Source of the DNA: a bacterium
GTDB taxonomy: Bacteria; Patescibacteriota; Minisyncoccia; UBA6257; GWB1-50-10
Direction: 5' to 3'
Assembly: GCA_002686365.1 (NCBI GenBank)
Contig: NZBZ01000020.1
Span: 55,484 to 119,483 of the forward strand
DNA length: 64,000 nucleotides
The stretch's first letter is position 1. Every line of letters starts with the position of its first letter. The position numbers were made by a program, and so were the translations under genes. Of the stretch, positions 869-62,837 are shown one piece after another. Under the pieces are notes generated by a model. That model was not told where the DNA came from. It ran no database searches and saw only the letters and a list, made by a program, of their open reading frames with translations.

Positions 869-2650
869 ATGAAAATACTTGGACTTTCTTTTTTTTATCA
901 TGATTCTGCAGCAGTGCTGCTGGTGGATGGAGTGCCTGTGGCAATGGCAGAGGAAGAGCGTTTTTCCAGAGTGAAGCATGATTATGAATTTCCATCGCGC
1001 GCAATTGAATTTGTTCTTGGAGAAGGAAAAATTTCTGCAAACGACCTTGATTACGTTGTATTTTATGAAAAGCCATTCATCAAGTTTGACAGGGTATTGA
1101 AAACGCTCCTTGGCACATTTCCATGGGCTCCGCACGTATTCGTAAAAGCTATAAAAAGCTTATTTCTCTCGAAAATCTGGATAAAGGTATTGATTGCAAA
1201 AGAGTTAGGCATTGATCCGCAGAAAATCCTTTTTTCAGAGCACCACCTCTCACATGCTGCAGCGTCATATCTTTCCTCTCCGTATGACAAGGCGGCGATT
1301 CTCAGCGTTGACGGGGTAGGTGAGTGGGCATGTACTGCAATTTCAATAGGCGAAGGAGATTCAATAAGGACTCTTGAAGAAATTCACTTTCCTCATTCTC
1401 TCGGCCTTCTTTACTCTGCATTTACTGCGTTCCTGGGTTTCAAGGTGAATGAGGGAGAATATAAAGTAATGGGAATGGCGCCGTACGGAACGCCAAAATA
1501 TGTAGAAAAAGTAAAAAAACTTATTAAATTTTTTGATGATGGTTCGTATGCGCTCAATCTAGATTACTTCTCGTTTCACAATTCAAATGCACGGACATAC
1601 TCGAAGAAATTCGTGAAGTTGTTCGGCAATCCGCGCAATCCAGAGTCAAAGTTTTTCACAAGAAAATCCGGCTGGCCCTCATACTTTGGGCCAAAGCCGC
1701 AGGGGGAAGAGTTCGAAAAGCTCGCAGATGAACAGGACTATTACGCGGATATTGCAGCCTCTCTTCAGGTAGTTACGGAAGAAGCGCTTATTCGTCTTGC
1801 AAAACGGGCATACGAGCTCACAAAGTACAGCAGGATTTGTATCGGAGGAGGTGTTGGTCTTAATTCTGTTGCGAATTGGAAGATTCTACAAAAAACACCA
1901 TTTGAAGAAGCATGCTTCCATCCTGCGTCAGGTGATTCAGGGGGAGCTTTGGGTGCAGCGCTTTATCTTGATAACGTAATACTGAAAAAAGGAAGAAAAT
2001 ATGTAATGCGTCACGCGTATTATGGAAAAGAATATAAGGAAAAAGAAATTCAGGAATTCATTGTTCAAAAAGGATTAAAAGCGGAACACATTCTGGATGA
2101 AGATGAACTTATAGAAAGGGTAGCAGAGGACATAATCGCCGGAAAAGTAGTGGGCTGGTTCCACGGCAGATTTGAATGGGGTCCGCGCGCGCTTGGGCAC
2201 CGATCTATTCTTGCCGATGCGCGCCGAGATGACATGAAAGACATTGTAAATACAAAGATAAAATTTCGTGAGCCGTATCGTCCCTTCGCGCCGTCAGTGC
2301 TCGCGGAGCACGTGGAGGAATTTTTCGATATTCCCAGCGCATCGAAGCACTATCCCGCTCGTTTCATGCTTTATGTAGTGCCGGTTAAGAAGGAGAAGCA
2401 GGCGCAGATTCCCGCAGTTACTCATGTAGACGGTACGGGGCGTCTGCAGATAGTACACAAAAAAGAAAGCCCTCGCTACTGGAAGCTAATTAACGAATTT
2501 TACAAGAAGACCGGAGTTCCGCTTGTGCTGAACACCTCTTTTAATCTGCGCGGTGAACCAATCGTGACAAGTCCAAAGGATGCCTATAATACGTTTATGA
2601 AGAGTGAAATAGATATATTAGTTTTAGAAAACTATATTATCGTCAAATAA
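869..2650 (+). CDS. carbamoyltransferase, NodU/CmcH/SxtI family
   Basis: 593 aa; N-terminus MKILGLSFFYHDSAAVLLVDG...KHDYEFP is the typical Carbam_trans_N signature, and size and C-terminal domain fit. Confidence 0.9.
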   Translation: MKILGLSFFYHDSAAVLLVDGVPVAMAEEERFSRVKHDYEFPSRAIEFVLGEGKISANDLDYVVFYEKPFIKFDRVLKTLLGTFPWAPHVFVKAIKSLFLSKIWIKVLIAKELGIDPQKILFSEHHLSHAAASYLSSPYDKAAILSVDGVGEWACTAISIGEGDSIRTLEEIHFPHSLGLLYSAFTAFLGFKVNEGEYKVMGMAPYGTPKYVEKVKKLIKFFDDGSYALNLDYFSFHNSNARTYSKKFVKLFGNPRNPESKFFTRKSGWPSYFGPKPQGEEFEKLADEQDYYADIAASLQVVTEEALIRLAKRAYELTKYSRICIGGGVGLNSVANWKILQKTPFEEACFHPASGDSGGALGAALYLDNVILKKGRKYVMRHAYYGKEYKEKEIQEFIVQKGLKAEHILDEDELIERVAEDIIAGKVVGWFHGRFEWGPRALGHRSILADARRDDMKDIVNTKIKFREPYRPFAPSVLAEHVEEFFDIPSASKHYPARFMLYVVPVKKEKQAQIPAVTHVDGTGRLQIVHKKESPRYWKLINEFYKKTGVPLVLNTSFNLRGEPIVTSPKDAYNTFMKSEIDILVLENYIIVK

Positions 2651-2652
2651 CT

Positions 2653-3816
2653 ATGCGAGCAGTATTCATGAAAATTATAGCGATTGCAGGGTCTTTGGCC
2701 GCCGCTCTTCTAATTGTAGAAGCATTGTTGTGGGCTCTCACAAGTTTGTCATTAATTCCATCATATAAAGTTGAACAGGTGCAAAAATTTTATGATGAAA
2801 AGCTTTTGTATCGCATTGAACCGCTTAGCCTTCCGGAGATAGATGAAAATGGATTTAGGAACCCCACAGTTCCTGACGAAGTTGATGTTATAGGCATAGG
2901 CGACTCTATGACATACGGCTACAATGCACTGACGGAAGATTCATGGGTTTATCAGCTTGGCCAAAAGACTGGCCTCTCTGTGTACAATATTTCCATTGGC
3001 GGCGGCGGTCCTCCGCAGTACCTCCTGCTTCTTGATGAAGCGCTAAAACTAAAACCGTCAACTATTATTGTGGGGCTTTATCTCGGAAATGATATTGCAG
3101 GGTCCTGCAGTGTTTTTAGAGAATTAGATTTTTGGAAATCATATGCAGTGGAAAATGAGATAGATATTGATGATTGTGTAAATTCAAACAGTGTATATTG
3201 GGGAACAGGCCCGCAAGTATCATCAGATGCAGCAAGAGATGTATCCGGCAGCTTGCTGGAGACAATTAGGGGGTCGTACACAATTTCTTTTATTAAGAGC
3301 ATTGATCCGGTGAAAAAAATGATATGGTCTTTTAGGGCAAAGAAGCTCCTTACGGAAAGCAGCGACTTTTACCTTATTGAAGACGATGCATTGAATGTAC
3401 TGATTGACTATAGCAAAAGTGATCTTATCGACAGAAAAGAAAAGGCAGTACAAAACGGTTACGAAATTACAAAGATACTATTTAAAGAGATGACTCTTAA
3501 ACTTGGGAAAGATCAGCAACTAGTTGTTGCTATTATCCCAACCAAAGCAGACGTATTCTACGATTTTTTACAAGAAAGAGATCACGATATTCCTAAGGCG
3601 CACGAAGACTCCGTTTTGATGCAAAGGGAACTAACAGCAGATTTTATAGACTACTTTAACGATTTAGGAGTAGATGCTGTAGATGCCAGACCGTTTTATG
3701 AAGAAAAGATATTAAATCAAAACCCGCGTTTATATCAAGAATTCAATCGAGATAACCACCCCACAAAAATTGGATATGAGGCAATTGCCGATTCTCTTAT
3801 GGAATTGTTTCAGTAA
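2653..3816 (+). CDS. SGNH/GDSL-type hydrolase-like protein with N-terminal membrane anchor
   Basis: GIGDSMTYG block (GDS(L)-like) after a TM helix; 387 aa. Confidence 0.5.
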   Translation: MRAVFMKIIAIAGSLAAALLIVEALLWALTSLSLIPSYKVEQVQKFYDEKLLYRIEPLSLPEIDENGFRNPTVPDEVDVIGIGDSMTYGYNALTEDSWVYQLGQKTGLSVYNISIGGGGPPQYLLLLDEALKLKPSTIIVGLYLGNDIAGSCSVFRELDFWKSYAVENEIDIDDCVNSNSVYWGTGPQVSSDAARDVSGSLLETIRGSYTISFIKSIDPVKKMIWSFRAKKLLTESSDFYLIEDDALNVLIDYSKSDLIDRKEKAVQNGYEITKILFKEMTLKLGKDQQLVVAIIPTKADVFYDFLQERDHDIPKAHEDSVLMQRELTADFIDYFNDLGVDAVDARPFYEEKILNQNPRLYQEFNRDNHPTKIGYEAIADSLMELFQ

Positions 3817-3844
3817 ACGACTTCTACGTCGTCATTGTAGGAGT

Positions 3845-4222
3845 TTATGACATCCCTCCTTCTGAAGGGTTGCTTTCACTCAATTTTTGATCCTGTTTCA
3901 AGTTCTGTTTATTGTCGTCTGAAGATGAAGGAGTGCCTCTCCTGCGAAAAAGTCTTTTAATTTTTGCCCACATCAGCTTAATGGTAAAAGATGCTCCCAA
4001 TAAGGTGGCAAGTACAATTTGAATTAAAAAGCTGCCCGTACCCGGATCAATATAGGCATCTGCTGTAAGGGGAACAATTAGAAAGTAGAAAGCAATAAAA
4101 AAAATAGCAAGAATCATATGTTCAAAAGCATACCACGAGTGAGAATGAACGCAACCATAAGATTTGTAAAACTCGTGAGGGTCTATATAATTGAAGGGCA
4201 TAAAAAATTCGCAGGAAAGCAT
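3845..4222 (-). CDS. hypothetical small membrane protein
   Basis: 125-aa ORF with two hydrophobic helices; divergent from the GT2 gene; no homology recognised. Confidence 0.3.
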   Translation of the reverse strand: MLSCEFFMPFNYIDPHEFYKSYGCVHSHSWYAFEHMILAIFFIAFYFLIVPLTADAYIDPGTGSFLIQIVLATLLGASFTIKLMWAKIKRLFRRRGTPSSSDDNKQNLKQDQKLSESNPSEGGMS

Positions 4223-4229
4223 TGTTAAT

Positions 4230-5390
4230 ATGGAACAGAATACTTCTACAAAAAAACCGCTTGTTTCAATCGTTATTACCTTATATAACGGTGAAAAATT
4301 GATATCCTGCGCGCTTGAGTCCGCTCTTAATCAAACATACTCAAATATCGAAGTTGTTGTATTTGATGATGCTTCAACTGACAACACTGAAGCTATAGTA
4401 AGAAAGTACGCTAAGGCAGATCCAAGGGTTGTATATGTAAGAAACGATTCAAATATCGGGTACGCCAGGAGCTTGGCAAAACTTCCGGAGATTGCCAGCG
4501 GAGAATATGCGCAGCTTCTTGGGGCAGATGACTGGATCGCTGATAATTGCGTTGAGACACTTGTCGAATGCATGGAAGATAATCCGAATGCAGCATGCAT
4601 CACTCCGGAGATGATTACCTTGGAAGAGATGCCGGACAATAGATTTCAATTCTTAAACAAATACATTCCCAAGAAAAAGAGACCGTCAAAAAAATTCTAT
4701 ATTCGAAATGTATACAAAACAGAGCTGGGATCAACGCTTACTCCGTATGCTCTTTTTCGAAAAGATGATTTTCTTGAAAGCGCGAGCTTTATAAAAGACG
4801 CTCTAACAAATCCTCCGGTGCCAACGCCTAAAGAGATGCTGGAAGTACATTCCAGAGGACATGCCACAGGAACTCTTTTCCTCTTAAAAGTAATGCACAA
4901 GTATGAATATCTTATATTCACAGATAAAACAGTATATATAAAAACTCAGAACTCAAAAAATAAAACCAAGGCATATAACAGTATTATCGACTGGGTAAGT
5001 GCCGGAAGAATACTCCAGTCATACTATTTTGATAGAATTGGCTATGATTACTTATTCAAGAGTACATACAGAAAGTTTCGAAAGGGTTTACGCCTATTTT
5101 TCAGCGTAGAACCATTCATCTCAATATTTTTTGTATTTATAAAAAGAGGATGTAAGCCGAAATTTTTTGCAGACTTAAAATGGAAGGACATAAAAGCGTA
5201 TTTTGCTGACTATTCTTTCGCGGGGAGAATAATGGCCCTGCTCTATCTGCCAATTCGCCTCGGAATACGAACCATCTCTTTTGGCACAAGGATATTCAGC
5301 GTGCCGAGAACACAGAAAAAAGATGTTTTCAAAGAAGAGTATTTTTTGAACAAAAAAGGGTACTTTAGTGTGCCAAAAATACGCAGTTAG
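4230..5390 (+). CDS. glycosyltransferase family 2 (N-terminal GT-A domain) with long C-terminal extension
   Basis: LVSIVITLYNGEKLISCALESALNQTYSNIEVVVFDDASTDNT is the classic GT2 motif. The track ORF starts at 4191; the internal ATG at 4230 avoids overlapping the divergent ORF. Confidence 0.75.
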   Translation: MEQNTSTKKPLVSIVITLYNGEKLISCALESALNQTYSNIEVVVFDDASTDNTEAIVRKYAKADPRVVYVRNDSNIGYARSLAKLPEIASGEYAQLLGADDWIADNCVETLVECMEDNPNAACITPEMITLEEMPDNRFQFLNKYIPKKKRPSKKFYIRNVYKTELGSTLTPYALFRKDDFLESASFIKDALTNPPVPTPKEMLEVHSRGHATGTLFLLKVMHKYEYLIFTDKTVYIKTQNSKNKTKAYNSIIDWVSAGRILQSYYFDRIGYDYLFKSTYRKFRKGLRLFFSVEPFISIFFVFIKRGCKPKFFADLKWKDIKAYFADYSFAGRIMALLYLPIRLGIRTISFGTRIFSVPRTQKKDVFKEEYFLNKKGYFSVPKIRS

Positions 5391-14013: not shown

Positions 14014-15003
14014 ATGATTATAACTAGAACACCATTTCGTATATCATTTTTTGGAGGCGGAACCGACCATCCTTCTTGGTACAAGGAGCACGGTGGAGCG
14101 GTTATTTCGACTTCAATAGATAAGTACTGCCATGTAACCTGCAGGCACTTACCGCCTTTTTTTGAGCACAAATCCAGAATCGCATGGTCTAAAATAGAGC
14201 TTGTAAAATCCAGAGAAGAGATTGACCATCCAGTAGTGCGTGCTGCCCTCGAATATCACAATATAGATGATGGAGTTGAAATACACACATTCGCGGATCT
14301 GCCAGCCCGATCTGGCATAGGTTCAAGCTCCTCTTTTACTGTAGGAGTTCTTCACGCACTATCTATCTTTAAGGGAAAAGCAATAGACAAAAAACAGTTA
14401 GCTCTTAGGGCTATACATCTTGAGCAGGATATTTTGAAGGAGAATGTCGGCTCTCAGGATCAGGCTGCAGCAGCTTTTGGGGGATTCAACAAGATAACCT
14501 TTGGAGGATCAGAGGAAATACGAGTAGAGCCAATCTTCTTAGAGCAGGAAAAATTAAATAACTTGAAAAACCACCTCTTACTCTTTTTTACCGGACTGTC
14601 TAGAAAGTCCTCAGAAGTTGCAGGCGAACAGATAAAAAATATACCTAATATAGGAAAGGAGCTCACTGCCATGAGAAAGATGGTAGATGATGCATCCCAT
14701 GTGTTAGGAAAGGGAGATATAAAAGATTTTGGCAAACTGCTTGATGAGTCATGGAAAATAAAAAGAGGATTATCTTCCAAAGTTACGAATCCGCAAGTAG
14801 ATGGAATATATGAGGCAGCAAAAGAGGCAGGCGCGATTGGAGGAAAGGTTTTAGGCGCAGGAGGCGGAGGTTTCATGCTGTTCTTTGTGCCTCCAGAGCA
14901 TCATGAGGCAGTGAAAGCCAAATTAAATAATCTTCCACTTGTTCCTTTTGATTTTGAAGATAGCGGAAGCCACATCATACATCACCGAAAAGAAGACGCC
15001 TAA
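14014..15003 (+). CDS. hddA: D-glycero-alpha-D-manno-heptose 7-phosphate kinase (GHMP kinase)
   Basis: MIITRTPFRISFFGGGTDHPSWYKEHGGAVISTSIDKY... is the typical HddA N-terminus, with a GHMP motif; 329 aa. Confidence 0.8.
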   Translation: MIITRTPFRISFFGGGTDHPSWYKEHGGAVISTSIDKYCHVTCRHLPPFFEHKSRIAWSKIELVKSREEIDHPVVRAALEYHNIDDGVEIHTFADLPARSGIGSSSSFTVGVLHALSIFKGKAIDKKQLALRAIHLEQDILKENVGSQDQAAAAFGGFNKITFGGSEEIRVEPIFLEQEKLNNLKNHLLLFFTGLSRKSSEVAGEQIKNIPNIGKELTAMRKMVDDASHVLGKGDIKDFGKLLDESWKIKRGLSSKVTNPQVDGIYEAAKEAGAIGGKVLGAGGGGFMLFFVPPEHHEAVKAKLNNLPLVPFDFEDSGSHIIHHRKEDA

Positions 15004-36899: not shown

Positions 36900-36904
36900 A
36901 AAAT

Positions 36905-37070
36905 ATCAACATCTCGACATCTCGATATCTCAACATCTCGAAATAATAGAAGGAGTCTCGACATCTCGATATCTCAAAATCTCGAAATAATAGAAGGAGT
37001 CTCGATATCTCAATATCTCAAAATCTCGAAATAATAAAAGAAATCTCAACATCTCGATATATCGAAATAA
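36905..37070. repeat. ATCTCGAT-type short tandem repeat array (locus 1), higher-order roughly 50-nt units x3
   Basis: atctcgacatctcgatatctcaacatctcgaaataatagaaggagtctcg recurs three times with variation. Confidence 0.85.
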
Positions 37071-37080
37071 TTAACATTTT

Positions 37081-38199
37081 ATGAAACACATAACATTGGT
37101 ATTTGGAACAAGACCAGAAGCAATAAAACTCGCTCCAGTAATCGAGCGTCTTCGAGCTACTCCTGAAATAAAAACAACTGTCTGCGTATTCCGCCAGCAG
37201 GGAAGCATGCTCAGTCAGACTCTAAAGGCATTAAATATTAAGCCGGACCTTGATTTGAAAATTGAAATAAGCGATCGCACAGTACTCGGAGAACATATTG
37301 GGCTTCTCAAAAAAGGAATCGCAGGAGTCGGATCTGGTTTTGGACTTTTAAAATATCTAAAATTTCTAAAAAAAGAAAAACCAGACCTATTAATAGTTCA
37401 GGGCGACACGTCAACAGCCTATCTTTCTGCGTGGCTTGCATTCCACTTTAAAATAAAAATTGCCCATGTTGAGGCAGGACTACGAACATATGACAAGTAT
37501 GCTCCATTTCCAGAGGAGATGAATCGGCAGCTCTTGGGACGCCTTGCAGATATCCATTTTGCCCCAACTGAAAAAGCAAAAGAAAATCTTCTAAAAGAAG
37601 GAGTTCCAGAAAAAGATGTGCATGTAGTAGGGAACACTGCAATTGACGCGCTTCTTAAAGCTGCTGAAAACATTGAAACTGCAGAATCGCAGGAAAAGAT
37701 GATTCTTGTAACAGCTCACCGCAGGGAAAGTTTTGGTCAGGGGCTAAAAGATATTTGTAAAGCTCTAAAGGAAATTGCAGAAGGCCACAAAGACATCAAA
37801 ATTATCTACCCAGTGCATGCAAACCCCAATGTTTCAAAACCAGTGCAAGAGCTATTAAAAGATGTGCCAAACATAGAACTCACTGATCCAGTAGATTACA
37901 AAGAAATCGTGCGCTTAATGAAGCAGTCATATTTGATTCTCACTGACTCTGGGGGAATTCAGGAAGAAGCCCCGTCTTTAGGCAAGCCGGTTCTTGTAAT
38001 GCGTGAAGAAACAGAGAGGGAGGAGGGAGTGAAAGCTGGCGTAAGCAAACTTGTAGGAACTGATAAAGAAAAGATTATAAGAGAAACTGAAGAGCTCTTA
38101 GAAAACAAAGAGGCGTACGAGCAGATGGCCCGCACTGAAAACCCCTACGGAGACGGTAAGGCGTCAGAGAAAATCGTAGAAGTTCTCTCCAAATCTTAA
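37081..38199 (+). CDS. wecB: UDP-N-acetylglucosamine 2-epimerase (non-hydrolysing)
   Basis: MKHITLVFGTRPEAIKLAPV...HVEAGLRTYDKYAPFPEEMNRQL; collinear with WecB/MnaA. Confidence 0.92.
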   Translation: MKHITLVFGTRPEAIKLAPVIERLRATPEIKTTVCVFRQQGSMLSQTLKALNIKPDLDLKIEISDRTVLGEHIGLLKKGIAGVGSGFGLLKYLKFLKKEKPDLLIVQGDTSTAYLSAWLAFHFKIKIAHVEAGLRTYDKYAPFPEEMNRQLLGRLADIHFAPTEKAKENLLKEGVPEKDVHVVGNTAIDALLKAAENIETAESQEKMILVTAHRRESFGQGLKDICKALKEIAEGHKDIKIIYPVHANPNVSKPVQELLKDVPNIELTDPVDYKEIVRLMKQSYLILTDSGGIQEEAPSLGKPVLVMREETEREEGVKAGVSKLVGTDKEKIIRETEELLENKEAYEQMARTENPYGDGKASEKIVEVLSKS

Positions 38200-38320
38200 C
38201 ATCTCGATATATTGATATCTCGATATCTCGATATTTCTACATCTCAATATAGGTAAGAAATTCCAATATCTCGATATCTCGAAATAGAAAAAGTAAGCTC
38301 GATATATCGATATCTCGAAA
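38200..38320. repeat. ATCTCGAT-type short tandem repeat array (locus 2)
   Basis: catctcgatatattgatatctcgatatctcgatatttc...atctcgatatctcgaaat... Confidence 0.85.
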
Positions 38321-38324
38321 TACA

Positions 38325-38358
38325 CAAAACCGCCACACTACAGAGAATGGCGGTTTTG
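38325..38358. terminator. bidirectional rho-independent terminator
   Basis: AAAACCGCCA-cactacagagaa-TGGCGGTTTT. Confidence 0.7.
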
Positions 38359-38368
38359 TGTATGTTGA

Positions 38369-39499
38369 TTACTTAAAGTAACGCGCAAACTCCTCCTTAG
38401 CCTGCTTGTATCTATTGCCCCAGCCCTTCATTTTTTGCAGCTTCTCCTCAAGGTCAAGCATGATTTTTGCTGAAACAAGAATAGATTCTATAGAATCACC
38501 ATCTCCATTTTCTGCAATTGTCTTTCCAATGGTCTGGTACATAGTCTTATAGCTATTTGTCTTAAATATCCGTTTCTTCCGGATAATTTTGTTATTATCC
38601 TCTGACTGATACTTAATAGCATCTGTTATGCGTATATTTTTATTAGGAACCTTAAGCTCTACAAAGTCTCTTGGTCCAACCCGTGAAGTGCCTTTTTCGC
38701 TAAACGTAGTGGTAAAGCATGCGCCATTCTCAAGCTCTATCCAGACTTCCACTGAACCATCCTGCATGAGTTTAATATCAGAATCCTTAGGCTTTGAAAA
38801 ATCATTGAGATGAAGGAAGTGATCAATCTGATGGCATCCATTTGCAAAAAATGTGCTTCTGGAAATAGGCCAGTTGTACCAGAAGAACTTAGGCTGAACA
38901 AGTTCGTACACAATAGAGTGGTATGAGATTGGATCTCCTTTCTTTATATCCAAATCCTCAAGCGCCATCTTGTTAAATACTCCATAGCGCTTGTGGAATC
39001 CAATAAATAGTTTTCTTCCAACTTTTCGTAATGCCTTTTCTAACTCATCTAAATCTTCGTAATCCATCACAACTGGTTTCTCAACAACAACATATGCTCC
39101 CTGACGCAAAGCATGCAGAGTTGTAGGCACATGAGTATTGTTATAGCTTGCCACAAAATATACATCTGCCTCTTCATTTTCTTTAGGGAAGGGAGATGTA
39201 TCCCATTTTTGAACTTTCCGTGCTCCGGAAATTTGTGTTGGGTCTGCCTCATGAACAGTCTGGATATTCACAAAGGGCTTCATGTAGGGAACAATGTTTA
39301 TTTTCGCGTAATTTCCAAAACCAAATAGAATTCCGCGCTTCTTAGAGCCTTTGCTTTGAATCTCACCCTTAGTTTCAGCAACTGCGCTTGGATTTTTTGC
39401 ATCAATCTGATCTGCCCAATCATTTTCCTTAATCTCTTTTTTCAAATTATCCTCAAGCTCCTTTTGAGTTTCTTGAGAAATCTTCATTCCTGAATACAT
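38369..39499 (-). CDS. Gfo/Idh/MocA family oxidoreductase (C-terminal 376 aa of the 580-aa track ORF)
   Basis: ILFGFGNYAK Rossmann start and VVVEKP motif. The track ORF continues upstream only because the ATCTCGAT repeat has no stop codons in any frame on this strand; start placed at the first ATG after the repeat. Confidence 0.65.
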   Translation of the reverse strand: MYSGMKISQETQKELEDNLKKEIKENDWADQIDAKNPSAVAETKGEIQSKGSKKRGILFGFGNYAKINIVPYMKPFVNIQTVHEADPTQISGARKVQKWDTSPFPKENEEADVYFVASYNNTHVPTTLHALRQGAYVVVEKPVVMDYEDLDELEKALRKVGRKLFIGFHKRYGVFNKMALEDLDIKKGDPISYHSIVYELVQPKFFWYNWPISRSTFFANGCHQIDHFLHLNDFSKPKDSDIKLMQDGSVEVWIELENGACFTTTFSEKGTSRVGPRDFVELKVPNKNIRITDAIKYQSEDNNKIIRKKRIFKTNSYKTMYQTIGKTIAENGDGDSIESILVSAKIMLDLEEKLQKMKGWGNRYKQAKEEFARYFK

Positions 39500-39530
39500 A
39501 CTCCATCCTTTTATCTTCTCCCACCACATA

Positions 39531-39636
39531 TCAACATCTCGATCTTTCGACATCTCAGAATCTCGATATCTCGATATCACAGCATCTTTATGTCCAGAAA
39601 TATTAGTATCTCGATATCTCGATATCTCGATATTTG
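39531..39636. repeat. ATCTCGAT-type short tandem repeat array (locus 3), lying inside the 580-aa minus-strand track ORF
   Basis: ...atctcgatatctcgatatcac...gtatctcgatatctcgatatctcgatattt. Confidence 0.85.
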
Positions 39637-39648
39637 TAAGAGGAGAGT

Positions 39649-40069
39649 ACAAAATAGCATCTTCTTTTAGTTCAGGAATATCAGACTTTTCTAATTGAAA
39701 AATAAGTTCTTCAGGCAGGACAATGCGTTCAGGGAGCGCAGGGTGAAGCGGGGCAATAAGTCCAACAGTATCTCCTGCTTTAAGGGCTCCATTATCCGGT
39801 CCCTCAATAATCTTTCCTATGCCGTATGAAACATACTTCTCATTTCTTCGGCCTTCCCGAAGTCTGGACCATGTTTTCGTAATAAGTCCTTCAAGGCCTA
39901 CAACAGGAAAGTAGTTCCAAAGAAGCCGCAGACTTTTCTGCCTTGTGTGATACACGCCGGAAAGACGCTCAAGGTTCTTAAAAGCAAGAATTTGAACGCG
40001 ATATTCAGTGGGGTTTCTATAATAATCCAGATATCCATCCCTCCACTTTTTGCCGGTTAATATCCTCAT
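39649..40069 (-). CDS. hypothetical protein (N-terminal 140-aa part of the 580-aa track ORF; separate gene or fused domain)
   Basis: ATG MRILTGKK... preceded by a TTG-started ORF; no recognised domain. The boundary with the downstream oxidoreductase is ambiguous because of the stop-free repeat. Coordinates approximate. Confidence 0.3.
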
Positions 40070-40318
40070 ATAAGCACCAAAATTATACCCGCATTTCACT
40101 GATAAAAACAAGCGATATCTCTACATCTCCCACAAAACTACGAGCACAGCGAGTATAGTTTTGTGAGGACCCTGAGCAAAGCGAAGGGTTTCAGTAAAAG
40201 TCCGACATATAAACACTTCTTGCTTGTTACCTTTAGAAGGGCAGTAACGTAGTACTAATGAAGATAAAACAGGTCGACAAATTGACTTCTAAACAGGAAA
40301 AATAATATAATAAAACTA

Positions 40319-42039: not shown

Positions 42040-42660
42040 GTATAAATTCTAAGGCGGCAACTCACGGTCACGGTGTTGCCGCCTTCGATCATGCACGAAC
42101 CGCATGATTAAACATAGGTATAGGCTGATTAGGCTGCTCGTGTCGCCTAGTTAGTCCTTGGCCTTCGTTGTGGGCGTAACGATCTCTGCCGCCTCTTTGA
42201 CGGTCGCGTCTCGACGTCTCTCGAGCACGTCTGGTCTAAGCATGAATGTCTCCCATAGGCACGGTGTGCTCCAGAGAGCCATGGAGCGTTATTGCCCATA
42301 ACTCCAAAGAACTAATTTCAGTATAACAAAATATAAAGACGTATATATAACAAGACGGCATTCTCGGTCCCGAATGCCGCCCTATCTAAAATCCGGACAC
42401 GCCGGACTATTGGCGTGTAATTGCGTGCTACCATTTAGCAGCACAGCCCTGTTCGATACCACAGAACTAATTGCAGTATAACGAAGACGTCTATAAATTC
42501 CAAGGCGGCACTGATCCACTGACCAAGATGCCGCCTTACGATTTTGGGTGTGTACAAGGTACCTGCAGAGTATCCCTAGGTCTAGGCACCGAGCGCATTA
42601 AGTGCTGCCGTTTAGCAGCGCAGCTCTGTTCGATACCACAGAACTAATTGCAGTATAACA
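42040..42660. repeat. GC-rich non-coding island with three tandem TATAAATT-promoter-like + GGCGGCA...TGCCGCC hairpin units and two about 60-nt direct repeats (GTGCTRCCRTTTAGCAGC...CCACAGAACTAATTGCAGTATAAC)
   Basis: Hairpins at 42051-42085, 42355-42382 and 42503-42537. Direct repeats at 42424-42490 and 42601-42658, with a partial copy at 42296-42327. GC is about 55% against about 40% in the flanks. Confidence 0.8.
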
Positions 42661-42706
42661 AAAATTAAAGATACTCCAAATATCCCTTGGCAAGTACTGG
42701 GGTTGA
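42661..42706. repeat. 45-bp direct repeat (copy 1) duplicating the 3' end of the downstream GT4 gene
   Basis: aaattaaagatactccaaatatcccttggcaagtactggggttgag versus ttaattaaagatactccaagtatctcttggcaagtactggggttgag at 43165-43208 (41/45 identical). Confidence 0.8.
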
Positions 42707-42802
42707 GTTGACAAAAACTGTATCTAGGTTCAAAGTAGGAACAGCTTAAGCGCGCAACAGGTATCATCCAAGTCAAAGTGCCCGCCAGCAGGAGATCCCA
42801 GC

Positions 42803-43066
42803 ATGACAGAGCCAGTAGGAAGAGGAATTTGTCTTTACGGACATCCAGCGTCCCTGCCTTCAGACAGTGAGATGGAATGGATGGTCCGAAAAGCCGGAGG
42901 ATTGGAACGCGACGAGGTGAACGCTACAACAAGGCCACGGAAGGACGGAATATGGGTCGTCGTGGCCATCATTGGTTCATCGGTGTCAGACGAAAAGTGG
43001 CAGAGAGTCGTGGATGCCGTCTCGGCGATTTCCGTGCCTCTCTCGGCACTTCGACAGGCCTCATAG
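42803..43066 (+). CDS. hypothetical 87-aa ORF inside the GC-rich island (doubtful)
   Basis: ATG ORF with no homology recognised; it lies between the two 45-bp direct repeats. Confidence 0.2.
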   Translation: MTEPVGRGICLYGHPASLPSDSEMEWMVRKAGGLERDEVNATTRPRKDGIWVVVAIIGSSVSDEKWQRVVDAVSAISVPLSALRQAS

Positions 43067-43164
43067 CCCCCGCTACGTACGCCGAGAAGAACGCTATTCT
43101 CCATCGTAACCCGTCTCAAGCTAACCAAAGCAGAGGCGGATTTTTTTCGCTCAGGTTTTCGTTA

Positions 43165-43208
43165 ATTAAAGATACTCCAAGTATCTCTTGGCAAGTACTG
43201 GGGTTGAG
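43165..43208. repeat. 45-bp direct repeat (copy 2), overlapping the last 8 codons and stop of the GT4 gene
   Basis: See copy 1; the sequence encodes ...AKRYLEYL* on the minus strand. Confidence 0.8.
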
Positions 43209-52140: not shown

Positions 52141-52383
52141 ATGGACGATCAACCAACACCTACACCAGGAGGCGACGAAGGAGCACCTACACCAGGTGCA
52201 CCTATGCCGGGAGCACCAGGAGCACCTACACCAGGAGCACCTACACCAGGAGCACCTGAAGCACCAGGAGCACCAGGCGCACCTATGCCAGGAGCACCTG
52301 AAGCACCAGGAGCACCAACTCCTCCTGCAGAAGAAGGAGGAGCACCAGGAGGCGACCAGTCGACTCCCGGAGCCCCTGCGTAA
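52141..52383 (+). CDS. Pro/Gly/Ala-rich low-complexity ORF built from 9/18-nt tandem repeats
   Basis: (GAPxP)n peptide; the DNA is GGAGCACCWRNNCCA-type tandem repeats; a terminator follows directly. Confidence 0.35.
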
Positions 52384-56587: not shown

Positions 56588-57442
56588 TTACACCTCTCGT
56601 ATCTGTTTTCCTTCCACCTGGATTTTTTTCAAAACCAATTTTCCGTCCCGCACCTCACTTTTCAAAATCTTCACACGTTTATTCTTTGGCAAATTTAAAA
56701 GAGAAGAATCGTCTGTTTGAGTCCACGTGCCCGGCTCAGGATTCAAGGCTCTTATCATTCGGTCAATTTGTTCTGCTTTTTCTTTATCTCCATCCAGGGC
56801 AGCGCGTAAGTCATTACAAGGAATCTCTGCATCTGCCGAAGAGAACTTTTTTGTGAGAGTTGCATTTTTATGTTTCTGCTCTTTTGGTGTAATTTTTCCT
56901 TCCATAAATTTCGGCAATGTTTCAATAAGCATGTCCGCGCCAAGTTCGGCCAATTTATCACTAAGACTTGTGTACGTTTCATTAGAAATTAGAAATTGGA
57001 AATTGGAAATTTTGAGTATTGGCCCATGATCCATCTTCTCATCCATAAGCATAAGTGAAACTCCGGTCTTGTCGCCTCCATCCAGAATTGCGCTCTGAAT
57101 CGGCGTTGGCCCGCGATGCTTTGGCAAGAGGGAGGGATGGACATTTACTGAGCCCAAACGTGAAACATCCAAAACTTCCTTTGAAATCAGCTTTCCATAT
57201 GCTGCAACAACGAAAAAGTCATACTCCGCGTCAAAAAGAGAAGCATCAAGATCTTCGGGCTGAATGAGGGGTATGCCAAGTCGCGCTGCAGTATTTTTTA
57301 CAGGAGGAGCTGTCATAGTCTGCTTTCTCCCAGCCGGCTTATCAGGATTGGTAACCACAAGATCCGGCTTCATGTTGGCCTGAATCAGTTTATCAAGAAT
57401 AGTCGCGGCAAAGTCCGGTGTTCCGAAAAAAATGTATTTCAT
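56588..57442 (-). CDS. fmt: methionyl-tRNA formyltransferase
   Basis: MKYIFFGTPDFAATILDKL...; formyl-transferase N domain. Confidence 0.88.
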   Translation of the reverse strand: MKYIFFGTPDFAATILDKLIQANMKPDLVVTNPDKPAGRKQTMTAPPVKNTAARLGIPLIQPEDLDASLFDAEYDFFVVAAYGKLISKEVLDVSRLGSVNVHPSLLPKHRGPTPIQSAILDGGDKTGVSLMLMDEKMDHGPILKISNFQFLISNETYTSLSDKLAELGADMLIETLPKFMEGKITPKEQKHKNATLTKKFSSADAEIPCNDLRAALDGDKEKAEQIDRMIRALNPEPGTWTQTDDSSLLNLPKNKRVKILKSEVRDGKLVLKKIQVEGKQIREV

Positions 57443-61620: not shown

Positions 61621-62163
61621 ATGACACCGCGTCAAAAAATTACGCTTATTGTTTCAGTGGTTGTTGTTCTTGCGCTTGTAATCGTAGGCAGTCTCGCAAG
61701 AAGAGGTGAAGAAGCAGAACCAGAGCCGGAAATAGGAAATGGAACAGAAAAAGTAGTACTGCAGGATGAAAAGAACATTGACGCGCCTGAAGTAATAGAA
61801 AAAGAAAAAATATTTACTCCAGAAATACCTAAATTCGTTACGCCAACTAAACCAAAAAAAGAATCTCCTGCAAATGAAAAAATGGGAATCAGTTTCGGGT
61901 TATATGAAATTAAAGTAGATAAAAATGGATTTACGCCCAACAGCATCGCTGTAAATAAAGGAGACATTATAGATCTGAAAATTCAGGCAGTTGATGATGA
62001 CTATGATTTTGTAATTCTATATTACGGAGCATATATCTTGATAGAGAAGGGGACCACTGGGACATTAAGCTTTGGAGCAACTGATACAGGAACAATTATG
62101 TTCACATGCCGCGATCTGTGCCCGAACGAGGGAAAGAAAGGAGAGTTTATCGTTATTCCATAA
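61621..62163 (+). CDS. membrane-anchored cupredoxin-like domain protein, paralogue of 60803-61399
   Basis: Start set at MTPRQKITLIV (TATAAT at 61607-61612, 8 nt upstream). C-terminal ...IAVNKGDIIDLKIQAVDDDYDFVI...IMFTCRDLCPNEG is paralogous to the upstream gene. Confidence 0.45.
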   Translation: MTPRQKITLIVSVVVVLALVIVGSLARRGEEAEPEPEIGNGTEKVVLQDEKNIDAPEVIEKEKIFTPEIPKFVTPTKPKKESPANEKMGISFGLYEIKVDKNGFTPNSIAVNKGDIIDLKIQAVDDDYDFVILYYGAYILIEKGTTGTLSFGATDTGTIMFTCRDLCPNEGKKGEFIVIP

Positions 62164-62265
62164 ATATCAATATGTAGAAATATCGACATATCGAGATATC
62201 AAAATATCAAAATATCAACATATCGAAATATCAATATATCAACATATCGATACATCGAAATATAA
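62164..62265. repeat. ATCTCGAT-type short tandem repeat array (locus 5, opposite orientation: ATATCGARATATC)
   Basis: atatcgacatatcgagatatcaaaatatcaaaatatcaacatatcgaaatatcaatatatcaacatatcgatacatcgaaat. Confidence 0.85.
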
Positions 62266-62267
62266 AA

Positions 62268-62744
62268 ATGGTTTCAATAGAAAAATTCGAAGATTTAATA
62301 TGTTGGAAAAAATCAAGAGAGTTAGCAAATTTCATATATGATATAACGGACAAATCAGAGTGGAAGGATTTCGACTTGAGAAGGCAAATTCGAAGAGCAG
62401 CAACTTCTCCAATGTCAAACATTGCAGAGGGATTCGACAGAGGCACAAGAAACGAGTTTGTTGACGCGCTGTTTATCGCAAAAGGAGAAGCCGGAGAAGT
62501 AAGAAGTCAGCTATATATCGCATATGATAGAAAGTTTATAAACGAAGAAATGTTAAAAAGAGGACAAGGGCTCACCGATGAGTGCTCAAGACTGATTCAA
62601 AGCTTCACTCACAAAGTAAAAGGAGGTTCTAGGAGGGGATTACAGTTCAAGCAAGTAAAGAAGCCAGACCAAATAACAACATTGTTTAAAAAAGAATTTC
62701 CAGATGCCTATAAAGAAATGAACAAAAACAGACAGGATATATAA
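62268..62744 (+). CDS. four-helix-bundle protein (23S rRNA intervening-sequence protein family, TIGR02436/PF05635-like)
   Basis: ICWKKSRELANFIYDIT...LRRQIRRAATSPMSNIAEGFDRGTRNEFVDALFIAKGEAGEVRSQLYIA matches the family consensus (...QIRRAA.SI.SNIAEG..R.....F...L.IA.GS..E...QL). Confidence 0.8.
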   Translation: MVSIEKFEDLICWKKSRELANFIYDITDKSEWKDFDLRRQIRRAATSPMSNIAEGFDRGTRNEFVDALFIAKGEAGEVRSQLYIAYDRKFINEEMLKRGQGLTDECSRLIQSFTHKVKGGSRRGLQFKQVKKPDQITTLFKKEFPDAYKEMNKNRQDI

Positions 62745-62754
62745 TAAAAATAGC

Positions 62755-62825
62755 AAAATATCGATATATCGATATATCGATATATCGACATATGAATATG
62801 TCAAAATATCGAAATATCAACATAT
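62755..62825. repeat. ATCTCGAT-type short tandem repeat array (locus 6)
   Basis: aaaatatcgatatatcgatatatcgatatatcgacatatgaatatgtcaaaatatcgaaatatcaacatat. Confidence 0.85.
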
Positions 62826-62837
62826 AGGCATAGAAAA

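Follow-up and report, generated by a model that had tools for sequence, protein, structure and literature searches.

Octamer tandem arrays around wecB and beside a four-helix-bundle gene in a candidate phyla radiation genome

The stretch of DNA analysed here (hereafter the window) comprises 64,000 nt of the 120-kb contig NZBZ01000020.1 in GenBank assembly GCA_002686365.1, a marine metagenome-assembled genome of a bacterium of the candidate phyla radiation (CPR). It carries a glycan-biosynthesis cluster followed by housekeeping genes, and the best homologues of two of its proteins are annotated as Patescibacteria (Jorgensenbacteria, Paceibacterota, Wolfebacteria, Colwellbacteria and others). 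Tandem arrays of one octamer family are found at five places in the window. Three of these, loci 1 to 3, lie around wecB and inside the adjoining gene for a Gfo/Idh/MocA-like (GFO-like) oxidoreductase. The other two form the flanks, or arms, of a gene near 62 kb that encodes a small four-helix-bundle (4HB) protein (Table 1). Contigs other than the window are designated by L numbers.

Table 1. Octamer arrays and adjoining features of the window
Feature	Position	Strand	Period-8 array (Tandem Repeats Finder)	Description and basis
Locus 1, orphan array of octamers in the spacer between GT4 and wecB	36903..37074	+	36911-37032	14 AT[C/A]TC[G/A]AN units (unit parse)
Locus 2, orphan octamer arrays from the wecB stop to the bidirectional terminator	38193..38326	+	38201-38250, with blocks 38266-38282 and 38299-38322	10 units in three blocks (38193-38250, 38266-38282, 38299-38322; Tandem Repeats Finder)
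GC-rich hairpin followed by a T run	38326..38360	.		AAAACCGCCAC...GTGGCGGTTTTGT (direct reading)
GFO-like oxidoreductase gene, host of locus 3	38369..40069	-		566 aa; PF01408, E 1.1e-10
Locus 3, octamer array within coding sequence	39528..39639	+	39536-39633	Antisense to the gene (Tandem Repeats Finder, translation)
Locus 4, array remnant	40113..40135	+		GCGATATCTCTACATCTCCCAC, 2-3 degenerate units (direct reading)
Upstream arm	62162..62262	+	62162-62269	10 ATATC[G/A]AN units, the last 5 nt before the ATG; period 8 x13.5
4HB gene	62268..62744	+		158 aa; PF05635, E 2.5e-29; TIGR02436, E 4.8e-29
Downstream arm	62750..62829	+	62748-62825	ATATCGAT x3 and further ATATC[G/A]AN units (Tandem Repeats Finder, unit parse)

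Tandem Repeats Finder was run on the whole window, and the region was also read letter by letter. A unit-by-unit parse gives a repeat of 8 nt with the consensus AT[C/A]TC[G/A]AN, with G or A at position 6 and any base at position 8. A first-pass annotation of this DNA had described a unit of 8-10 nt; the length of 8 nt stands, and the consensus is corrected. Position 3 is C in 26 of the 31 units of loci 1 to 3 and A in all 16 units of the 62-kb arrays. The + strand polarity is common to all arrays of the window, the 62-kb pair (ATATC[G/A]AN) included, so the opposite orientation ascribed to that pair was wrong. The units are imperfect (63-76% matches at period 8), and they are organized into super-periods of 44 nt at locus 1 and 24 nt at loci 2 and 3. 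A higher-order repeat had been noticed at locus 1 as three copies of about 50 nt; it is present, with a measured period of 44 nt and 3.6 copies (90% matches), and each copy consists of four octamers plus AATAATAGAAGGAG. By direct reading, the pure unit is free of stop codons in any frame on both strands. Because ATATCGAT is palindromic and ATCTCGAT is self-complementary at 6 of its 8 positions, arrays that share an orientation double as inverted repeats.

These arrays are genuine short tandem repeats, as had been proposed, and a non-random feature of the DNA. Beyond their detection by Tandem Repeats Finder, ATCTCGAT occurs 15 times in the window against an expectation of 3.07 +/- 1.52, a count that none of 100 shuffles reaches. 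Thirteen of the 15 occurrences are on the + strand within loci 1 to 3, and ATCTC[GA]A is matched 35 times on the + strand and 9 times on the - strand. Intergenic DNA makes up 11% of the window yet contains 42 of the 68 + strand matches to AT[CA]TC[GA]A, which bears out, within the window, the suspected intergenic enrichment. Spacers in general are not filled, since arrays are present in only 4 of the 28 that exceed 60 nt. Of the claim that every spacer from 36.9 to 40.1 kb is made of arrays, loci 1 and 2 remain; locus 3 is coding, and the supposed fourth locus is a mere remnant with no match to the relaxed unit pattern. The 64 kb sampled from this genome contain five arrays that share one unit family, which places the octamers with the dispersed hepta- and octamer direct repeats.

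The gene between the 62-kb arms matches PF05635 at 102 bits (cut-off 33.8) and encodes a member of the 23S rRNA intervening-sequence (IVS) protein family, with 6453 homologues at E<=1e-10. Loci 1 to 3 carry no such open reading frame (ORF) and are referred to here as orphan arrays. The 4HB protein also matches PDB entries 2gsc (E 1.6e-8) and 2rld, each with five chains. Its gene and arms reside in a conserved co-directional operon, after an S41 peptidase, L9, L27 and two cupredoxins and before a large secreted protein; the next ATG (62838) lies 9 nt beyond the end of the downstream arm. Pairing of the arms was calculated for a duplex between the 100-nt stretches on the upstream and downstream sides of the gene, in comparison with dinucleotide shuffles. 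The window arms pair at -35.6 kcal/mol, against -16.4 +/- 3.5 for the shuffles (z -5.5; none of 200 as good), and the upstream and downstream arms fold on themselves with z -2.3 and -4.2, respectively.

The 4HB protein is better conserved than the proteins around it. It is 77-78% identical to its syntenic orthologues on L149 and L152, where the neighbours reach 33-79%; for L152 separately, the figures are 77% for the 4HB protein and 33-70% for the neighbours. Between sister species, the 4HB protein is 93% identical and the neighbouring genes are 69-89% identical. Judged by these comparisons, strong constraint acts on the 4HB protein. A four-helix-bundle cassette of IVS-like character, set in an mRNA context, is the best description of the 62-kb element.

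Ten CPR loci in about six gene contexts were compared: the window, L041, L059, L114, L139, L149, L152, L154, L158 and L161, with the sister species L176; they were recovered independently of one another. Genomic locations were retrieved for seven homologous 4HB proteins and for one neighbouring gene. L041, L059 and L114 were found blind, by a DNA-pattern scan of metagenomes followed by an ORF search with the window 4HB protein. The scan asked for five consecutive degenerate units and returned at least 120 loci, all of whose ORFs were searched with that protein. The pattern was too permissive, and only heterogeneous arrays containing CG proved informative. Most of the loci were set aside as perfect single-unit microsatellites on contigs of 20-66% GC that are probably unrelated and partly eukaryotic.

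In L041, L059 and L114, heterogeneous ATATCGAN/ATTTCGAN arrays directly adjoin the 4HB homologue, and they do so on each side where the contig includes both flanks. The octamer family touches both ends of the CPR 4HB genes fetched, with tandem octamers directly upstream of the ORF in the window and at nine other CPR loci; L152, which has almost no arms, is the exception. Motif density is 40.7 per kb within 130 nt on either side of the 4HB genes and 2.0 per kb in the rest of the loci. Arm pairing exceeds that of shuffles in L059 (z -4.4), L114 (-3.9), L139 (-2.9), L149 (-3.2), L154 (-5.0) and L161 (-3.9). The 4HB gene is co-oriented with its neighbours in every context fetched. It lies between SecA-PRA-CH and DsbD-Obg, between DUF4015 and ScpA, between SecA and SecD, between thyA-folA-PRT and pyrF, or between a cupredoxin and a secreted protein; the last arrangement, with S41, L9, L27 and the cupredoxins in front, makes L149 and L152 syntenic with the window. 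In a search for an empty site, the single sister species fetched also has the 4HB gene. ATAT- and ATCT-type units are mixed in single arms (the L149 downstream arm, L161) and in orphan arrays (L095, L031, and 5 of the 31 units of window loci 1 to 3). This mixing within single arrays ties the ATCTC-rich loci 1 to 3 to the ATATC-rich arms. Many 4HB homologues are found on contigs of only 1-3 kb.

Short tandem repeats accompany 4HB genes outside the CPR as well. A tblastn search of plasmids with the 4HB protein gave 23 records, of which 13 were examined, and units of 7-8 nt adjoin the 4HB ORF in all of these except Calothrix (12 of 13). The units are GGTTYAAG/CTTRAACC in Riemerella, GGGAAAA/CCCTTTT in Nostoc and Geminocystis, GGTGACA/TGTCACC in Anabaena, GGGAGTA/TCCCTAC in N. 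edaphicum, GGAGATAA and its complement in Picosynechococcus, CAGGAGT in N. punctiforme, and CTCTGCC in PCC 7120 and Stanieria. Direct units stand on both sides in Pseudanabaena (GCTAAAA and GCCAAAA) and Gemmatirosa (CTCCTGCC). Complementary arms, with z from -2.5 to -8.9, are present in Riemerella, Nostoc, Anabaena, Geminocystis, Picosynechococcus, N. edaphicum and Pseudanabaena.

Some of these plasmids, and some genomes of another phylum, have further features of interest. On the cyanobacterial plasmids L165, L168 and L183, 4HB genes with repeat arms lie co-oriented inside CRISPR-cas operons, between cas6 and cas4 or between cas10 and cmr3. Such 4HB genes in cas operons were noted earlier, with the repeats unmentioned (PMC3936711). 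In Nostoc PCC 7120, plasmids gamma (L185) and alpha (L187) encode an identical 4HB protein, WP_010994075.1; the gamma copy adjoins an ISL3 transposase, and the two copies have a common downstream CTCTGCC array and different upstream sequence. Metagenome-assembled genomes of Bacteroidales and Prevotella (L002 at 383-630; L007, L009, L010 and L012) contain intergenic arrays of NNNTCGAN or AAATCCCG octamers that extend up to about 250 nt.

Locus 3 is a coding, in-frame insert and not a spacer. The first-pass annotation had correctly placed it within a long minus-strand ORF and found its motif stop-free, and had nevertheless counted it among the spacers. It has periods of 8 nt (12.2 copies) and 24 nt (4.2 copies), and it is translated as ...ISRYRDTN ISGHKDAV ISRYRDSE MSKDRDVD..., so that 24 nt correspond to three units and 8 aa. 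The gene starts at the ATG at 40069 rather than at the TTG at 40111, because all aligned homologues begin with an MRILTGKKW-like sequence; the 580-aa ORF is thus a 566-aa gene. Annotation pipelines may mis-call starts or fusions near such arrays, and here the 580-aa call hides a gene with a repeat-encoded insert.

The GFO-like family is conserved in Patescibacteria, with 270 homologues; among the matches listed, query coverage is 91-100% and identity 59-68%. Most homologues are about 540 aa long. The insert contributes about 27 aa to a variable linker, in which the window protein alone of 20 aligned sequences has ...IEISRYRDTNISGHKDAVISRYRDSEMSKDRDVD...; most others have about 5-20 unrelated residues there, and none of the 19 has this insert: it is missing, or a much shorter and unrelated stretch takes its place. 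AlphaFold2 assigns a confidence (pLDDT) below 50 across the insert, residues 153-178. Other GFO-like homologues have low-complexity inserts of their own at this linker and at two further linkers (GGGSAFGG, NPSTRSFDSESLRLD, GPLTGSASSPQANSGQV), which may also be translated repeat DNA.

The surroundings of the orphan arrays are conserved without the repeats. In the relative L017, whose GFO-like protein is 68% identical, the order GT2-GT4-wecB-GFO is kept, the genes overlap and there is no array; in the relative L018, the wecB-GFO spacer contains unrelated 11-nt repeats. Because the L017 order is the same without arrays, wecB and the GFO-like gene stand in their ancestral places and were not shuttled. 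This disposes of the earlier suggestion of an element that shuttles these two bracketed genes, for which their presence or absence in relatives was the check: both are present and in place in the array-less L017. By this synteny, repeats were added around and into the wecB and GFO-like genes, and the orphan arrays would have been added after divergence from the known relatives. The only gene that is consistently bracketed by arrays is the 4HB gene.

L017 has repeats of another kind. An ORF-less palindromic element of about 140 nt occurs there twice (1325-1470 and 5133-5272), with arms of tandem AATCTCT/AAACCCT heptamers and RNA folds of z -8.6 and -8.1. In-frame 7-nt repeats lie within its asparagine synthase gene (3933-3968) and a GT2 gene (14205-14236).

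RNA folds of loci 1 to 3 are not better than those of shuffles (z +1.46, -1.15 and -0.02 for the + strand, and -0.93 for the - strand), which leads us to reject structured RNA or DNA at these loci. Pairwise duplexes among the three loci are at chance level (z -1.3, +0.1 and -1.9), and a stem of loci 1 and 2 enclosing wecB is rejected by its z of -1.3. A sigma-70-type scan detects no sense-orientation promoter-like site in any array, and promoter-like sites are not above shuffle expectation (7 against 9.2 expected; 3 against 6.6 expected). The sole terminator-like match within the arrays is the palindromic ATATCGAT run on the minus strand. A promoter or terminator role of the arrays is rejected on the basis of these scans. 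The AGGAG of locus 1 is also rejected as a Shine-Dalgarno sequence, since no start codon follows its copies; Shine-Dalgarno-like motifs precede only 8 of the 53 window genes. The hairpin at the end of locus 2 separates the convergent wecB and GFO-like genes and is outside the repeat family. Beside the locus 4 remnant, the divergent spacer at 40136-40200 contains two small hairpins, CAAAACTA...TAGTTTTG and GGACCCTGAGCAAAGCGAAGGGTTTC.

Copy number is constant in every comparison available. Wherever L001 and L170-L175 overlap the window, they match it at 100% identity and without gaps, and identical sequence is found in ENA assemblies, those of Tara Oceans among them. Three to four independent assemblies from different samples span each array, without copy-number variation; the comparison is of consensus assemblies, which are nearly clonal elsewhere too. 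For locus 2, L001 matches the window exactly over the portion that it spans, and L173-L175 end before the array. In the L139 lineage (ten contigs, L139-L148), there is no variable column from 2045 to 3829, arms included, although SecA varies. Thus, slipped-strand contingency repeats, an early candidate, are not indicated, and comparison across assemblies gives a single length for each array. The arms of sister species can be aligned, and they differ by indels of 8 and 24 nt. On this evidence, arms change by whole units on an evolutionary time scale and are not hypervariable. A number of independent contigs from metagenome assemblies of this organism terminate no more than a few hundred bases from the arrays (L173-L175 at 38008-38027; L001 spans 37044-39807), and the arrays may fragment short-read assemblies of CPR genomes.

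The explanation that we favour, with somewhat less than even confidence, is that the arrays represent a lineage-specific octamer family that forms the arms of 4HB cassettes, with loci 1 to 3 as ORF-less, neutral by-products. Within a polycistronic transcript, two arms of the same orientation would pair to form an IVS-like stem. RNase III would then cut the stem, and the 4HB message would be excised or insulated; we infer this processing from the Coxiella precedent (see below) and from the pairing statistics. The orphan arrays lack an ORF and consist mostly of the non-palindromic ATCTC variant. They would change by whole-unit slippage or unequal recombination, in steps of 8, 24 or 44 nt, and would survive where they are harmless: in an operon spacer, in a 3' untranslated stretch before a terminator, and, as multiples of three units, in a disordered inter-domain linker of an enzyme. 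Presumably, they either remained as arms after loss of the ORF through recombination between direct arms, or are ectopic copies that were seeded from existing arrays and then extended by slippage. Most likely, the arrays next to wecB and within the GFO-like gene are passengers of neutral effect; they look more like spare arms of a selfish cassette akin to an rRNA intervening sequence than like elements that regulate or carry the adjacent sugar genes. Among the candidates originally put forward, decayed footprints of a small mobile element come closest to this explanation, as the same family does form the arms of CPR 4HB cassettes; the shuttling of wecB and the GFO-like gene was the part that failed.

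Several observations weigh against this explanation. Loci 1 to 3 do not fold or pair above chance, so the stem mechanism cannot apply to them, and their link to the 4HB arms consists of motif similarity (7 of 8 positions) and of the mixed arrays elsewhere. A whole cassette at locus 3 would have destroyed the gene. By the same comparison of duplexes with shuffles, the arms of L152 and L158 are not complementary, nor are those of Calothrix and of both PCC 7120 copies, and the Pseudanabaena and Gemmatirosa arms are direct repeats of non-palindromic units. Because some arms are non-complementary or direct, the universal feature is tandem repetition rather than a stem. The unit type of the arms does not co-vary with 4HB protein similarity; GGGAAAA arms, for instance, accompany proteins that are only 32-36% identical. 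No site was found at which one lineage has the ORF and another only a solo array, in a search that covered one sister species. Finally, no 4HB gene was detected within the 3-8 kb fetched around the Bacteroidales orphan arrays, which are of the same type and were accordingly not grouped with the cassette.

Two other explanations have a smaller but appreciable chance of being correct. Each octamer might accommodate a single subunit of an oligomeric protein that binds nucleic acid, as TRAP binds GAG repeats and omega and ParG bind 7-8-bp arrays; this is possible, although we doubt it. An equally doubtful extension makes the pentameric 4HB protein the candidate binder, on DNA or RNA such as (ATATCGAN)n or (ATCTCGAN)n, with arms that autoregulate and orphans that are further targets. 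A cis repeat does adjoin a highly conserved small gene at every locus, the 4HB protein outlasts its neighbours in conservation, the solved structures of its relatives, 2gsc and 2rld, each contain five chains, and between the window and L149 the unit consensus is kept while the order of units turns over. Tandem repetition is also universal where complementarity is not, and the dispersed TAACTGA heptamers have been proposed to bind a post-transcriptional regulator (PMC4679880). Binding fits less well with unit types that fail to co-vary with the protein, with the near absence of arms beside the 77%-identical protein of L152, with a spacing of 8 bp that is out of phase with the DNA helix, and with Bacteroidales orphans that have no 4HB gene nearby. 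It is about as improbable that the arrays are autonomous dispersed repeats, generated by polymerase slippage from favoured seeds, in which case 4HB genes merely insert or are retained there and loci 1 to 3 are unrelated. This would account for orphan arrays without 4HB genes in several phyla, for the separate 7-nt repeats of L017 in spacers and coding sequence, for published heptamer and octamer families, and for direct arms at some loci, which are expected if a gene splits a pre-existing array. However, independent slippage predicts unrelated units at each locus, as in Borgs (PMC9879509), whereas here five loci within 26 kb share one unit family with 4HB gene arms from many CPR classes. The motif is also 20-fold denser in 4HB flanks than elsewhere, and only 4 of 28 long window spacers have arrays.

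The remaining explanations involve mobility or phase variation and have much lower probabilities. An element that moves by cut and paste and duplicates 8 bp of a palindromic target site (ATCGAT, with a TCGA core) is improbable, and the same small chance attaches to its corollary that each cycle of insertion and excision adds one unit and that the 4HB gene is cargo of a non-autonomous copy. The ISL3 family makes 8-bp duplications. The unit length of 8, the palindromic core, the presence of arrays on both sides of the cassette and of solo arrays elsewhere, and the ISL3 transposase beside one Nostoc 4HB copy all fit. Nevertheless, no terminal inverted repeats separate arm and ORF, arrays extend as far as the start codon or into it, no transposase was found in those parts of the window that were annotated, other phyla have 7-nt non-palindromic units, and the 44-nt higher-order units indicate block duplication instead of growth unit by unit. 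It is more improbable still that the arrays are hypermutable contingency loci through which expression of wecB, of the GFO-like enzyme and of nearby surface-glycan genes would be switched. They do lie in a glycan-biosynthesis cluster, and IVS repeat copy number varies among Coxiella strains, but the arrays are identical in all independent assemblies that cover them (three to four each), and in ten contigs of another lineage the arms are invariant while SecA varies. Imperfect units suppress slippage, locus 3 stays in frame within a mid-protein linker, and no promoter-like sites are present in the arrays. Least credible of all is a small mobile element that shuttles wecB, the GFO-like gene and the 4HB gene singly. 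Although all three are physically flanked by arrays, wecB and the GFO-like gene keep their positions and order in L017 without them, the 4HB gene is itself at a conserved syntenic position in L149 and L152, and loci 1 and 2 do not pair (z -1.3).

Familiar classes of repeat can be set aside. The arrays are not CRISPRs, as was recognized from the start; CRISPR repeats measure about 23-47 nt, alternate with unique spacers that are similarly long and are usually accompanied by cas genes, whereas these units are contiguous and 8 nt long, and the window ORFs scanned encode no cas domain. Iteron-like arrays had been listed as a candidate and are rejected as well. Iterons are 17-22-bp repeats beside a rep gene or origin, and the 8-nt units have neither beside them in the annotated parts of the window, with no Rep, ParA or ParB domain in the ORFs scanned. 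Cumulative GC skew rises through the region with only minor dips. The scan of window ORFs, six of which (at 25.4-32.5 kb) were outside it, detected no cas, Rep, transposase, reverse transcriptase or DNA methyltransferase gene. The sole methyltransferase among them is of the FkbM type, so an enzyme recognizing the palindromic cores, as once envisaged, was not found. A restriction-modification signal is rejected, as there is no marked avoidance outside the arrays: TCGA occurs at 1.13 and ATCGAT at 0.74 of expectation (4 against 5.4). GATATC outside the arrays is at 0.53 of expectation (11 against 20.7). An Rfam scan of the window at gathering thresholds returned two tRNAs only and no rRNA.

A broader possibility, which we consider unlikely yet worth stating, is that PF05635 4HB proteins and dispersed 7-8-nt tandem repeats are two halves of one widespread system. 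The pentameric 4HB protein might, with no greater likelihood, bind the repeats or help to generate or spread them, with the wecB and GFO orphans as other targets. The repeats concerned could, just as tentatively, include the CPR octamers, the cyanobacterial heptamers that resemble short tandemly repeated repetitive (STRR) sequences, and possibly the Xanthomonas, Geobacter and Beggiatoaceae families. If this were true, a very large orphan family (more than 6000 close relatives) would gain a function, and repeats that have been unexplained since 1990 would be explained. Two old puzzles meet here: the role of the IVS 4HB protein and the route of its gene into rRNA genes, cas operons and housekeeping operons, and the nature of dispersed hepta- and octamer tandem repeats in bacteria. 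The association of 4HB genes with dispersed short repeats appears unreported in the literature searched, where papers on 4HB/IVS proteins and papers on dispersed repeats are silent about each other.

Other parts of the window contain further features. At 42041-42671, three modules of about 150-177 nt each start with TATAAATTCYAAGGCGGCA, contain a GC-rich hairpin and end with CCACAGAACTAATTGCAGTATAAC. Their GC content is about 0.50, compared to about 0.40 elsewhere, they have no long ORF and no Rfam match at E<=1, and they may be a cluster of undescribed small RNA genes. Next to them, a 45-nt direct repeat (42663-42707 and 43164-43208; 96% identical) surrounds a 456-nt segment that looks like an insertion and contains small ORFs (42803-43066 and others) with no Pfam match. 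A 9/15/42-nt tandem repeat of the GGAGCACCA type at 52179-52317 lies in a small ORF (52141-52383; 80 aa, no Pfam match), where it encodes a repeat rich in Gly, Ala and Pro. ATTAGAA is repeated 4.4 times (95% matches) at 56981-57011 inside the methionyl-tRNA formyltransferase gene (56588-57442, minus strand).

Several known systems share some properties of the arrays. The ribbon-helix-helix (RHH) proteins omega of pSM19035 and ParG of TP228 act on operator or centromere (parH) arrays of 7-8 bp. These, too, are contiguous, very short units beside the gene of a small oligomeric protein. In the window, by contrast, the annotated parts have no RHH, ParA or ParB gene, the adjacent protein is a four-helix bundle, and arrays also occur downstream of the gene and within coding sequence. 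Repetitive extragenic palindromes (REP), the interspersed mosaic elements built from them (BIME) and elements resembling miniature inverted-repeat transposable elements (MITE) are likewise dispersed, ORF-less, intergenic and co-transcribed, and the palindromic element present twice in L017 is comparable to them. Loci 1 to 3 differ from them in having no above-chance hairpins, terminal inverted repeats or target duplications, whereas the 62-kb arms do fold (z -2.3 and -4.2). Unlike contingency loci, the window arrays have imperfect units and a constant copy number, are not placed at promoters, and have their coding copy in mid-protein. Borg tandem repeats are perfect and nearly all unique to their locus, with genic units divisible by three (PMC9879509). 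They resemble the window arrays in occupying both spacers and ORFs, in their in-frame genic copies and disordered segments, and in being lineage-specific and absent from relatives. The window units are imperfect, however, one 8-nt unit recurs at all loci, and frame is kept only by 24-nt blocks.

Dispersed hepta- and octamer families are closer. They include the TAACTGA heptamers of Beggiatoaceae, Cyanobacteria and Bacteroidetes (PMC4679880), the Xanthomonas GGGAATC and Nostoc GGGGA(T/C)T repeats (PMC4692102), the GGGACCG, GTTGCTYN and TCTCCGTS families of Geobacter metallireducens (PMC2700814), and the STRR heptamers of cyanobacteria. As in the window, one short unit forms tandem sets at many loci, mostly intergenic, often just before start codons and occasionally within ORFs, and the distribution across phyla is patchy. 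The window unit differs in its length of 8 nt, its sequence and its CPR host. The link to 4HB genes is the most consistent feature here, whereas term searches of PMC4679880 and PMC4692102 return no mention of IVS, S23 or four-helix proteins.

The closest counterpart of the 62-kb cassette is the 23S rRNA IVS that encodes the S23p/23S_rRNA_IVP protein in Coxiella burnetii and Leptospira. In Coxiella, the S23p ORF is preceded by AGAAGA and two to three tandem GACAGAT heptamers, the number of which varies among strains; a stem is made by the inverted repeats at the termini, and RNase III has been shown experimentally to cut at the first repeat (PMC4990558). Insertions in CPR rRNA genes sometimes encode the 4HB/IVS protein (PMC11270868). 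The window element has its place outside rRNA genes, between protein genes of an operon (cupredoxin and secreted protein). Its arms are long arrays of 8-11 near-palindromic 8-nt units in which direct and inverted repeat coincide, and orphan arrays are scattered nearby, one of them in coding sequence. The window-type 4HB protein is strongly conserved, whereas the Coxiella protein is decaying. Even so, both kinds of element encode a PF05635 protein in the sense of the host transcript, have complementary termini (z -5.5 for the window arms), place short tandem repeats directly upstream of the ORF (ten octamers in the window) and exist in ORF-less versions beside ORF-bearing ones (PMC11270868).

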